Source: Escherichia coli
Lineage (GTDB): Bacteria > Pseudomonadota > Gammaproteobacteria > Enterobacterales > Enterobacteriaceae
Assembly (NCBI RefSeq): GCF_051903065.1
Contig: NZ_CP178439.1
Strand: one strand, 5' to 3'
Length of the DNA stretch: 64,000 nucleotides
In this document: piece by piece, positions 3,001 to 6,000 of the stretch
Layout of the letters: the number at the start of each line of letters is the position of its first letter
Numbering within the stretch: the stretch's first letter is position 1
Position numbers: made by a program

Positions 3001-6000
3001 CAACGTGGATTTGTTGAATAAATCGGGCACTGTTGCAAAGTTAGCGATGAGGCAGCCTTTTGTCTTATTCAAAGGCCTTACATTTCAAAAACTCTGCTTA
3101 CCAGGCGCATTTCGCCCAGGGGATCACCATAATAAAATGCTGAGGCCTGGCCTTTGCGTAGTGCACGCATCACCTCAATACCTTTGATGGTGGCGTAAGC
3201 CGTCTTCATGGATTTAAATCCCAGCGTGGCGCCGATTATCCGTTTCAGTTTGCCATGATCGCATTCAATCACGTTGTTCCGGTACTTAATCTGTCGGTGT
3301 TCAACGTCAGACGGGCACCGGCCTTCGCGTTTGAGCAGAGCAAGCGCGCGACCATAGGCGGGCGCTTTATCCGTGTTGATGAATCGCGGGATCTGCCACT
3401 TCTTCACGTTGTTGAGGATTTTACCCAGAAACCGGTATGCAGCTTTGCTGTTACGACGGGAGGAGAGATAAAAATCGACAGTGCGGCCCCGGCTGTCGAC
3501 GGCCCGGTACAGATACGCCCAGCGGCCATTGACCTTCACGTAGGTTTCATCCATGTGCCACGGGCAAAGATCGGAAGGGTTACGCCAGTACCAGCGCAGC
3601 CGTTTTTCCATTTCAGGCGCATAACGCTGAACCCAGCGGTAAATCGTGGAGTGATCGACATTCACTCCGCGTTCAGCCAGCATCTCCTGCAGCTCACGGT
3701 AACTGATGCCGTATTTGCAGTACCAGCGTACGGCCCACAGAATGATGTCACGCTGAAAATGCCGGCCTTTGAATGGGTTCATGTGCAGCTCCATCAGCAA
3801 AAGGGGATGATAAGTTTATCACCACCGACTATTTGCAACAGTGCCCTTGAATCTATCCGGCGTCTGAATGGGATTTTATTCCCGCGCCTTGATGAGTTCC
3901 GCGCCTGATGAACCTCCAGAAAATATACGGCTTCAATGAGCCTTTCCGTTTTACAGGTTCCTCAACAGGCCGGTGGGCCGTTAGTATCATCAATATCAGT
4001 ATTCGCAAAACCAGATCAGTAATTCTTTAAACCGGTGTATTTCTGCCGTTATGCTACATAAGTTTGCTGTCGTGCCGTTAGGGCCCAGGCTATTCTGGCC
4101 AGCTTGTTTGCCAGAGCACAAGTGACGACAAAGTTGCTTTTCCGGCACAGTAAATCCCTGACCCAATCGGCCAATTTGCCAGACTGGTGTTCCAGTTTTT
4201 GTATGAATACCCTGGCACATTGAACCAACAAAGTTCGGATCTTTTTATTACCTCGCTTACTAATTCCCAGCAATGTCGTCCTACCTCCCGTGCTGTACTG
4301 CCGAGGTACAAGCCCTGTTGCCGCCGCAAAGTCACGGCTGCTGGCGTACTGCTTCCCGTCGCCAATCTCAGTTGAAATAGTACTCGCTGTCAGTGTTCCG
4401 ACGCAGGGAATGCTCAGCAAGCGCTGTCCAACCTCATCTTCGTCCAACTTTCGTTTCAACTGGGATTCCAAATCTTTAATCTGCTCAACAAGATAGTGAT
4501 AATGCTGTTGTAATTTCAGCAATAACTGGCTGAGGTAAAGAGGCAAACTACTGTCCTCAAGAATGGTACTCAGTCGGCTAATAACGGCAGCTCCTCGGGG
4601 AACGCTAATGCCAAATTCCAGCAGAAAAGCATGCATTTGATTGGTTGTTTTTACCTTATCCTGAACCAGGGATTCACGGACACGATGCAGAGCCCGCATT
4701 GCCTGCTGAGATTCCGTTCTGGGCTGCACAAAACGCATAGACGGACGCGATGCAGCTTCACAAATAGCTTCGGCGTCGACAAAGTCGTTTTTATTGCTTT
4801 TAACGAACGGGCGGACAAATTGTGGTGATATCAGCTTTGGGGAATGCCCCAACTCTTCCAACTTGCGTGCCATAAAGTGAGAACCGCCACAGGCTTCCAT
4901 TGCGATGGTTGTAGCGGGGCATGTCGCCAAAAATTCGATCAACTTTGGCCGGGTAAATTTTTTACGGTAAACAGCCTTCCCGCGACGATCCTGGCAATGA
5001 ATATGGAAAGAGTTTTTACCCAGATCGATACCAATGAGCGCAATGTTTTCCATGATAGTTCTCCGAATGAAAGCCTGTCCTCAGCATAGTACCGGGAAGG
5101 AGGGAGTGACCATCTCATTAAATATCCCACGCTAAGACTGTTTGCTGTACAAATTGATGTCGACAGCGCGTAATGACCGTAGTCACAGGAACAGCTAATG
5201 GTATTGAAAATTGACCCGTAACTGAAACAGCATCGACCCAGCAGCGATGATGTGAACCTTGAAGAACTTTGGGTGCAGCCTCTTATAGCAGCAGTTTTTG
5301 CTGTTGTTCCCTTAATAAGATATGCCCTGTAAATACCCTCATGGCTTCATTTATAATACTATTATTAGCTTACTACGACTCAGTCTAGAAACAGCATCAT
5401 CTCCACTGGGGCTAAAACACCACTTACCGCATGCTTTCATATAACCAGATTTCAGCCCCCTTGAAAGGGACTAATCGCTGTATACCAGCGAGTCTAAAAC
5501 ACCTTGTCCACTATGGACCCCTCCCTCTGTCGATTCAGCTGATTTGCTACGAATTAGATATCCAGCAAAACTGTGCTCAGCACTGGAGGGATTGTTATCT
5601 GTCTGCACGGAGAACATTCCAAGTTCGCTTATCAAATCATTCACCTTATGCAACTCCCCTTTACGCACAATCAAGGTGGGCATAGCTCGGGGCTGAGGGT
5701 GTAAACGGCGCATCAGCGACCAGGACTGATATTGTTGTGGAGTGAGTTCCGTCAGTTTTGTCAGGATATCCGCACCAAACAGACAATGCCCCCCGCCTTC
5801 ACCCTGATTTTTGAGAACCCAGGTTTCCGAAGGAGACTCTTTTGCAAGGTTGATACTATCCGGGCTGATGGGTAACATCTCACCCAGTATCGTTTTTGCT
5901 ATTTTAGCTTCCTGCAGTGTTAATCCAAATGCGACAAACTCGTCGTAACCCAATTGCGAGAGCAGCATTTGTACTCGCTTGCTGGTCGCCAGTTGCTGGC

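Follow-up and report, generated by a model that had tools for sequence, protein, structure and literature searches.

The region around gshB in the window, a stretch of 64,000 nucleotides from Escherichia coli contig NZ_CP178439.1, is very probably a layered, non-functional mosaic that records five successive events. Sequence comparison places gshB at the cargo end of an arsenic-resistance transposon of the Tn3 family, roughly 17 kb long and with an ars cluster of about 11 kb, because longer relatives run via this cluster into tnpR, res, and tnpA. The initial annotation had already taken the glutathione synthase gene and the DNA adjoining it for the interior of a Tn3-family transposon, and the flanks, a tnpA remnant, and the longer versions agree with that view. 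At least 149 plasmids in PLSDB carry the block at 3846–7112 with 100% identity, which makes chance no concern. IncHI2 plasmids often show this arrangement, an ordinary scar of a multidrug-resistance plasmid in which the gshB-bearing end is all that is left of the transposon between IS26 copies.

The transposon end beside gshB

What remains of the 38-bp Tn21-like terminal inverted repeat (IR) is its inner 16 bp, AATATCCCACGCTAAG, at 5121–5136 on the plus strand, the outer 22 bp having been lost. The sequence CACGCTAAG (5128–5136), previously noticed in the right flank with coordinates one base off, is a genuine part of this remnant. The 16 bp match the inner part of the Tn21 IR at 13 of 16 positions and are 100% identical to the inner part of the intact IR, GGGGTCCGCTTGGAAAACGGAAAATATCCCACGCTAAG, found in five other records whose inner DNA is identical. 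The full repeat agrees with the Tn21 IR at 31 of 38 positions and with the IR of the transposon on pKOX100_2 at 36 of 38.

The same IR-gshB end adjoins six different outer flanks: an IncN iteron, the upstream region of strA, a Tn3-family tnpA fragment, an IncI2 backbone, the IncF plasmid of Klebsiella sp. w6, and the arsA gene of a 90%-related ars island. Given these six flanks, the IR has been mobile. A second, inverted copy was found neither in the window nor in the loci examined, and all far ends of the element are cut by IS elements. At up to three mismatches, no such IR was detected in the Citrobacter arsenatis ars island or elsewhere in the window.

The stop codon of a Tn3-family tnpA lies inside the IR, preceded by the last 15 codons of the gene (RSLRAVDINLYSKQS; 5132–5179, minus strand). 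In tblastn, residues 980–994 of the pKOX100_2 TnpA match this remnant at 11 of 15 positions, and the DNA of 5120–5179 is 85% identical to the pKOX100_2 transposon; searching 5101–5500 with a related TnpA revealed nothing past these 15 codons. A non-coding spacer of 290 bp (5180–5470, no strand assigned) separates the remnant from the 3′ end of gshB. Its relatives occur only in copies of the same element, so that the join between transposon end and cargo has no explanation, a point that counts against the reading favored here. Homology to the Citrobacter ars island begins at 5472. This related island contains gshB and lacks such an IR; therefore, the IR and gshB were joined secondarily.

The gshB gene (5471–6907, minus strand) encodes a eukaryotic-type glutathione synthase of 478 aa, or 487 aa from an alternative start at 6934. 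Its product matches PF03917 (206 bits) and PF03199 (70 bits), while its score of 236 bits against TIGR01986 lies under the 330-bit cut-off of that model. Homologues at 77–80% are located in ars islands, a context suggesting that gshB originally supported glutathione-dependent arsenic detoxification. In its present setting, the gene is probably a hitch-hiker.

The proposed arsenic-resistance transposon and competing readings

The Klebsiella sp. w6 plasmid, 99.8% identical to window positions 5120–6996, continues beyond gshB through arsR-like, arsC, PTP, arsC, arsRDABC, GNAT, arsA, arsD, sigma factor, arsH, and arsR genes into the C-terminal 89 aa of a resolvase, 89.9% identical to the TnpR of pKOX100_2. 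Two metagenome contigs share the same ars end at 99.9% and proceed through a complete tnpR and a putative res site into the first 245–287 codons of tnpA, where both stop or are truncated; their TnpA N-termini are 91–92% identical to the pKOX100_2 protein. In contig L048, a complete tnpR (90.6% to pKOX100_2 TnpR) is divergent from a truncated tnpA across a 159-bp gap. A tnpR-res-tnpA sequence of this kind is carried by contig Ga0308165_1002988. A PLSDB search with the arsR-tnpR junction matched only the Klebsiella sp. w6 plasmid itself, and no single record with the whole transposon, a full-length tnpA, or the tnpA-side IR was found in PLSDB or the metagenome scan. The database search proposed earlier for this segment recovered longer ars-tnpR-tnpA versions, although not a whole transposon in one record. 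A tnpA-side IR would be the missing second end of the element.

A close relative is the pKOX100_2 transposon of Klebsiella oxytoca, organized as tnpA-res-tnpR-sulP-usp, inserted in a Tn21-type mer region, and with relatives in Pectobacterium, Pantoea, and Vibrio. The likeness extends over the IR (36/38), the IR-proximal 60 bp (85%), TnpR (about 90%), and the TnpA N-terminus (91–92%). Its cargo is sulP/usp, whereas that of the present element is gshB-ars; of the ends of this element, the window keeps just the cargo-side IR remnant. IRs of the same family delimit Tn3-type transposons in K. oxytoca and Pectobacterium, and in Xenorhabdus such a transposon carries ars genes as cargo. Tn1721 and Tn21 likewise have 38-bp ends (GGGG...ACGCTAAG) with the tnpA stop codon inside the IR, and in Tn1721, as here, the cargo-side IR is adjoined by a short duplicated tnpA 3′ remnant. 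In Tn21, however, tnpA and tnpR are co-directional, while they are divergent here, as in Tn3; the IR agrees at 31 of 38 positions, and the cargo here is arsenic resistance.

One IR of this type per copy has been seen, which would also suit a solitary IR spread by one-ended transposition, or a non-autonomous cassette that a related transposase of the Tn3 family mobilizes in trans, with IR, tnpA remnant, and gshB never having belonged to a complete two-ended ars transposon. Tn21 and Tn1721 are known to undergo one-ended transposition, and the many different outer flanks and a tnpA reduced to 15 codons at this end point in the same direction. We nevertheless consider such an origin quite unlikely, as cuts by IS26, IS3, or IS1294 account for every one of the variable far ends, the longest versions reach a cognate tnpR-res-tnpA module whose lineage is that of the IR, and cargo followed by tnpR-res-tnpA is how Tn3-family transposons with cargo are normally organized.

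Passages of PMC6288184 and PMC6052338 describe gshB as an IncN segment, and the gene does repeatedly adjoin IncN repA and iterons. That gshB belongs to the IncN backbone as part of an “IncN1 segment” (ΔrepA-iterons-gshB-ΔIS1294), the IR-like 38 bp being incidental, is nonetheless very improbable. In the canonical IncN plasmids pMTY1881_IncN and R46, the iterons run on without a break at the corresponding position and gshB is absent; the junction itself splits a single iteron. In addition, five other unrelated flanks adjoin an identical IR-gshB end, and a tnpA 3′ remnant sits inside the IR. R46, an IncN plasmid with an ars operon, was considered as a source and rejected: neither gshB nor the IR is found at its iterons. 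Its ars genes lie elsewhere on the plasmid, bounded by IS26.

The local arrangement is published as gshB-ΔIS4321 or ΔrepA-iterons-gshB-ΔIS1294 in passages of PMC10100706, PMC6288184, and PMC6052338, these modules being the same DNA as the window block. Together with passages of PMC11201502, they assign gshB modules to IncHI2 and F33:A-:B- plasmids, present gshB either as a segment of IncN or as a neighbor of ramAp, and note the IS4321 insertion and the 114-bp IS1294 end; the 38-bp IR, the tnpA remnant, and the ars transposon are not identified in the passages of these four papers that were available. A literature search combining ars, Tn3, glutathione synthase, and IS26 returned no paper, and the searched literature holds no name for the ~17-kb transposon. 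The earlier description of the transposon as uncharacterised does not extend to this published local arrangement.

IS4321 and the flanking insertion sequences

Nucleotide identity and end alignments assign the element at 3846–5120 (minus strand) to IS4321 (Partridge & Hall 2003), of the IS1111 group of the IS110 family, and not to IS5075. It is 99.4–100% identical to copies annotated as IS4321 and 93.3% to copies annotated as IS5075, which share its family, size, organization, and target. The initial annotation had placed the element in the IS4321/IS5075 pair, at the usual 38-bp IR site, and this placement stands; the choice of IS5075 within the pair does not. An intact ORF at 4049–5053 (minus strand) encodes the 334-aa DEDD transposase, with matches to PF01548 (74.6 bits), PF02371 (72.3 bits), and, at 340 bits, NF033542, the NCBIfam model of IS110-family RNA-guided transposases.

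The copy is truncated and not an intact member of its family: 1275 of 1327 bp are left. Alignment to three full copies shows that the missing 52 bp (TCTATGGTCACTCCC...GGCTTG) are the transposase-distal, right end. Of the two 12-bp subterminal repeats, the left one, GGGAGTGACCAT, is kept at 5102–5113, followed by the 7-bp terminal extension CTCATTA at 5114–5120; these form the left end (5102–5120, minus strand), as aligned with full copies. Extensions of 7 bp on the left and 3 bp on the right are described for the IS1111 family (PMC11187229). The right repeat is gone with the deletion, and the copy should therefore be immobile. It shares with reference IS4321 the transposase, left subterminal repeat and extension, IR insertion point, and orientation, differing by being 52 bp short at the right end.

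At the junction with the IR, CTCATTA is followed directly by AATATCCCACGCTAAG. In two other records, a full IS4321 splits the 38-bp IR, and the complementary junction, ...ACGGAA followed by TCTATGG, is present in both. The insertion point thus lies between ...ACGGAA and AATA..., the orientation is the one usual for the pair, and 22 + 16 bp make up the 38 bp of the IR with no target duplication. Compared with the Tn21 IR, 7 of the 38 positions in this target are different.

The truncating element is a complete IS26 of 820 bp (3026–3845, minus strand), a 100% match to other copies in the window and in pTBMCR401, with a transposase ORF at 3078–3800 (minus strand) matching PF13610. Clipping of the element on its left, in window orientation, by IS26, as proposed earlier, is borne out by the end of IS26 at 3845 and the absent 52 bp. 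The window keeps no left flank: IS26 took away the end of the IS together with the outer 22 bp of the IR and the DNA beyond. Of the flanking targets anticipated on aligning to IS5075 and Tn21-family IRs, the right one is real, while on the left the IS end is missing and no IR survives in the window. An IS5075-like element of about 1.2 kb with a degenerate outer IR copy as its left flank, prompted by the resemblance of CCAGAAAATATACGG at 3917–3931 to CAGAAAACGGAA of the Tn21 IR, is next to impossible, since this CAGAAAA-containing stretch is internal sequence present in every full IS4321/IS5075 copy, all of the sequence from 3846 onward matches the interior of such copies in a base-for-base alignment that puts their true ends another 52 bp outward, and identity to IS5075 is only 93.3%.

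On the other side, the region upstream of gshB (6908–6996, no strand given) ends in GTTC at 6993–6996, the target of IS1294; in pSZ10R-tetX4, the Klebsiella sp. w6 plasmid, and more than 40 other plasmids, the DNA runs on past GTTC without IS1294. In one plasmid, a gene for FosL1 is inserted 20-odd bp upstream of gshB. The 114 bp at 6997–7110 (minus strand) match the oriIS end of complete copies of IS1294 (IS91 family), an end likewise described in passages of PMC6288184 and PMC6052338. This IS1294 end is cut by a 301-bp IS26 fragment (7111–7411, plus strand), which is 100% identical to the initial 301 bp of the element. A complete IS1294 followed by further DNA of the element was sought in plasmids, and none has it; in the best match, pE566-mcr-1.1, IS1294 ends in IncI2 shufflon DNA.

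Of the 3′ non-coding region of IS4321, 203 bp are left (3846–4048, minus strand); they contain two putative seekRNA guides that would mirror both target strands. Putative guide 1 (3943–3952; RNA AAAACGGAAA) has an exact 10-nt match to one strand of the target IR, and putative guide 2 (3919–3926; RNA ATATTTTC), which is the CAGAAAA stretch discussed above, a 7–8-nt match to the other. Both matches span the insertion point, in the order published for the IS1111 family. They are short, a 10-nt match being reached in 30 of 2000 mononucleotide shuffles. The predicted fold places the putative guides on opposite sides of an internal loop, with a non-significant z of −1.4, and an Rfam scan of 3700–5300 for a curated bridge or seek RNA family gave only a chance snoRNA match (E = 0.85).

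Proposed history and significance

The favored history would begin when a Tn3-family transposon with Tn21-like 38-bp ends entered the iterons of an IncN replicon. This transposon would have had the layout IR, 15-codon tnpA remnant, gshB, ~11-kb ars cluster, tnpR, res, and tnpA. IS1294 would then have inserted after GTTC just upstream of gshB, and IS26 would have stripped all DNA to the right of its first 114 bp. In a fourth event, IS4321 would have entered the cargo-side IR between ...ACGGAA and AATA..., guided by its DEDD transposase and presumably by a seekRNA from its 3′ non-coding region pairing with both IR strands. Finally, a later IS26 event would have taken away the IncN flank along with the outer 22 bp of the IR and the 52 bp that IS4321 lacks at its right end.

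The identities and boundaries of the pieces are observed directly, as are two intermediates. Plasmids pSTM6-275 and pCE1594 combine iterons and an intact IR with gshB and ΔIS1294. In E. coli CP061118, a complete IS4321 separates the outer 22 bp of the IR, on the iteron side, from the inner 16 bp next to gshB. We infer the order of the second and third events relative to the fourth. With IS4321 short of one end and the transposon devoid of tnpA, tnpR, and an intact IR, the remnant is unable to move alone; it travels solely when IS26-mediated rearrangements carry it along in multiresistance regions of the IncHI2 type.

The value of these results lies mostly in correct annotation, and the workings of these types of elements are unchanged. 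The presence of a Tn21-like IR explains why IS4321/IS5075 elements adjoin gshB in hundreds of resistance regions, whether of IncHI2, IncF, or IncX1 plasmids or of chromosomes, and the so-called IncN gshB segment is re-assigned to the end of a Tn3-family arsenic-resistance transposon. The region also offers a natural case in which IS4321 accepts an IR that diverges from that of Tn21, with the bases matching the putative guide RNA kept. A speculative extension, which we rate as rather unlikely, is that the cargo end of the ~17-kb ars transposon, with the IR-gshB fragment as its tip, has become one of the most widely scattered hitch-hikers in Enterobacterales resistance regions, and that gshB may persist by raising glutathione for FosA3/FosL1 or for the detoxification of arsenic or other metals. 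If true, the glutathione synthase would supply glutathione-dependent resistance enzymes encoded by the same plasmids.

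The IS4321 remnant and its putative guide segments

Window 2800-7400 was read and compared with public plasmids, which revealed a block bounded on both sides by IS26 sequence, complete on the left (3026-3845) and a 301-bp fragment on the right (7111-7411). Directly to the left of the IS4321/gshB block lies a Tn4352-like kanamycin-resistance unit (1026-3845), consisting of IS26, aph(3')-Ia (ORF 2087-2902, minus strand) and IS26.

The block opens with an insertion sequence encoding a 334-aa DEDD IS110-family transposase (4049-5053, minus strand). Described as IS5075-like in the initial annotation, this element is IS4321, since DNA 3846-5120 is 99.4-100% identical to IS4321-annotated elements and only 93.3% to IS5075-annotated ones. 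Both ends were aligned with complete elements located in Tn21-type repeats, two of them IS4321 and one IS5075; this showed one IS end to be absent and a remnant of the inverted repeat (IR) to be present. Full copies have the junctions GGGGTCGTCTCAGAAAACGGAA|TCTATGGTCACTCCC... and ...GGGAGTGACCATCTCATTA|AATAAAGCACGCTAAG. The window keeps the second type: by the same alignment, 5102-5113 is the subterminal repeat and 5114-5120 the 7-bp extension. At the other end, the match begins at 3846, immediately after the last base of IS26, confirming the suspected clipping by IS26; 52 bp are absent, including the right subterminal repeat (1275 + 52 = 1327 bp). Because this end is absent, the copy should not be expected to excise.

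The CCAGAAAATATACGG stretch near 3917-3931, previously taken for a degenerate left flank, is IS interior, as it occurs in the 3' non-coding region of all full IS4321/IS5075 copies aligned. In the published seekRNAs of the IS1111 family, the guide segments overlap where the insertion occurs, and the complement of the top strand lies 5' (PMC11187229). When the full 255-nt IS4321 non-coding region was rebuilt and compared with the target IR, two matches emerged: AAAACGGAAA (3943-3952, reverse strand) and, 17 nt beyond, TATTTTC (3919-3925), which becomes ATATTTTC against the repeat variant found here. They are complementary to opposite IR strands, each spans the ...GGAA|AATA... insertion point, and their order agrees with the published one. 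The predicted fold, which is not statistically distinctive, puts one on each side of an internal loop that surrounds a small hairpin, and the 10-nt match alone occurs in 1.5% of shuffles. From these complementarities we infer that the IR-like stretch is a putative guide recognising the IR.

A probable Tn3-family arsenic-resistance transposon ending in gshB

The right flank does retain the suggested Tn21-family IR remnant, in the form of its inner 16 bp (5121-5136, AATATCCCACGCTAAG), which match AATAAAGCACGCTAAG of Tn21 at 13 of 16 positions. Other records show an unbroken 38-bp repeat, GGGGTCCGCTTGGAAAACGGAAAATATCCCACGCTAAG, ahead of this inner DNA; it matches the Tn21 repeat at 31/38 positions and that of the Klebsiella oxytoca pKOX100_2 Tn3-family transposon at 36/38. 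Immediately inside the repeat, a tnpA remnant (5132-5179, minus strand) encodes RSLRAVDINLYSKQS and a stop codon, corresponding to the last 15 residues of the pKOX100_2 TnpA; no further tnpA follows these 15 codons. The arrangement resembles that of Tn1721, which also has a short tnpA remnant next to its cargo-side repeat. Relatives of 5180-5470 were found only within copies of the same element. Next comes gshB (5471-6907, minus strand), a eukaryotic-type glutathione synthase gene whose product scores below the TIGR01986 cut-off. Its closest non-identical homologues (77-80%; Salmonella, Aeromonas, Yersinia) all lie within arsenic or chromate resistance islands. In the Citrobacter arsenatis plasmid island, DNA is 80% identical from the gshB stop codon onward, and a 38-bp repeat of this type is absent. 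In Salmonella Paratyphi B CP074609 (11595-16522), the 80%-identical homologue lies at the margin of an ars/arr-like island and directly adjoins a CBASS-type defence operon (SAVED, SMODS, Cap2, JAB).

The body of the element is visible in a Klebsiella sp. w6 plasmid, where DNA 99.8% identical to window 5120-6996 continues into an ars cluster (ArsR-like regulator, arsC, phosphatase, arsC, arsRDABC, GNAT, arsA, arsD, sigma factor, arsH, arsR) and then a resolvase remnant of 89 C-terminal residues, cut by IS26 and sharing 89.9% identity with pKOX100_2 TnpR. A pattern built from this fragment picked out two metagenome contigs that share this ars end at 99.9% identity. In one, IS26 simply interrupts tnpR, beyond which lie the remainder of that gene, res and 245 tnpA codons; the other carries complete tnpR, 287 codons of a divergently oriented tnpA and then an unrelated junction. 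Their tnpR/tnpA module shares 91-92% protein identity with that of pKOX100_2.

With an intact IR, a tnpA remnant and an ars cluster leading into tnpR-res-tnpA, gshB is very probably the gene at the cargo end of an arsenic-resistance transposon of the Tn3 family measuring roughly 17 kb. This size adds about 3.5 kb, for what remains of tnpR together with res and tnpA, to the 13.3 kb between the IR and the point where IS26 cuts tnpR. The main idea of the initial annotation, that the adjoining DNA and the glutathione synthase gene form a Tn3-family transposon interior, stands; its element name and left-flank reading do not. Because target duplications were not recovered, and neither were a full tnpA and second repeat in the records examined, a one-ended or trans-mobilised origin of the IR-gshB end keeps a small share of probability; we regard it as improbable.

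When a single genome was scanned for each species, the repeat family of this arsenic transposon turned up in Pantoea sp. IMH, Vibrio furnissii, Proteus, Symbiopectobacterium and Xenorhabdus bovienii. One T228 contig of the latter (NZ_JANAIF010000016) has two inverted repeat copies bracketing a tnpR-like segment and arsC/arsB/arsH homologues, which adjoin one of the copies; the arrangement resembles a compact arsenic transposon from this lineage. Window 13183-14031 holds another 38-bp repeat of different sequence, GGGGAGCCCGCAGAATTCGGAAAAAATCGTACGCTAAG, presumably of Tn1721/Tn501 type. It lacks IS4321 and is followed by about 800 bp from the 3' end of a tnpA (68% aa identity to pKOX100_2 TnpA), cut by IS26 (14032-14851).

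Outer flanks and the right side of the block

The outer flank of the repeat varies between records: an IncN iteron (pCE1594, pSTM6-275), the region just upstream of strA (pSZ10R-tetX4), IncI2 backbone (pE566-mcr-1.1), an IncF plasmid (Klebsiella sp. w6), a Tn3-family tnpA fragment (an IncR plasmid, with complete IS4321 inside the repeat) and arsA of a 90%-related ars island (pUWI-PS6.1). In pUWI-PS6.1 (CP066329, 13742-23600), where arsA of this second, 90% identical island is interrupted by the repeat end, two partial ars clusters lie in inverted orientation either side of gshB. The flank in NZ_AP027890 (3449-3660) is a tnpA C-terminal fragment, very like pKOX100_2 TnpA as judged by eye, and may be the tnpA of the ars transposon itself, brought there through an intramolecular joining. 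In pCE1594 (2327-3889) and two further loci (L016, L018), an ArsP-type permease and ArsR WP_001175593.1, the protein that also ends the Citrobacter island, lie no further than 1.5 kb from gshB, outside the repeat and with IS1 and IncN iterons between, which suggests reshuffled pieces of one ars element.

PMC6288184 and PMC6052338 label an IncN1 segment ΔrepA-iterons-gshB-ΔIS1294. Because iterons are continuous at this junction in canonical IncN plasmids, the segment is really an insertion into an iteron. The E. coli chromosomal copy in CP061118, reading iterons, outer 22 bp of the repeat, complete IS4321, inner 16 bp and gshB, shows the direct precursor of the window arrangement; an IS26 event subsequently removed everything outward of IS4321 base 53.

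On the right, a 114-bp IS1294 oriIS end (6997-7110), likewise described in PMC6288184, is inserted after GTTC; in more than 40 plasmids without IS1294, sequence continues past GTTC. In pE566-mcr-1.1 (NZ_MT536763, 3405-5000), a miniature Tn7-like cassette of 1.6 kb, which has Tn7-type ends, carries fosL1 plus a GNAT gene and is bordered by CCTGG direct repeats, occupies the site corresponding to window ~6927-6931. This site falls within the 5' part of the long gshB ORF, upstream of the annotated start (6907). The insertion thereby sets fosL1 (glutathione-dependent fosfomycin resistance) beside the glutathione synthase gene. The cassette is already known (Kieffer 2020, via PMC7755807); the excerpts covered make no mention of its gshB neighbourhood.

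Literature and distribution

The component types (IS26, IS4321 targeting 38-bp repeats, IS1294, Tn3-family cargo transposons) are all well known. PMC10100706 prints the local arrangement as 'gshB-ΔIS4321' and PMC11201502 describes a conserved ramAp-gshB-IS4321 cluster. Within the searched literature, which spans few subscription journals and partly excerpts, the 38-bp repeat, tnpA remnant and ars transposon at gshB went unrecognised, and no name for the transposon was found. Right of the IS26 fragment, 7412-13182 is the plasmid-borne ramA region ('ramAp'), with coordinates mapped from the pTBMCR401 annotation: a DUF1158 protein (~7675-7923), RamA-family regulator (~7941-8282, minus strand), DinQ-like toxin (~9811-9906), AAA ATPase (~10539-12440) and peptidase M14 (~12546-13055).

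The finding is real and ordinary. The IncHI2 plasmid pTBMCR401 is 99.98% identical to the whole stretch 3026-14851; sub-block 3846-7112 occurs at 100% identity in at least 149 PLSDB plasmids, mostly ones of ~230-330 kb from Salmonella, E. coli and Enterobacter; and among 5426 complete E. coli genomes, about 171 have the gshB part. The block is therefore a common piece of a multiresistance region.
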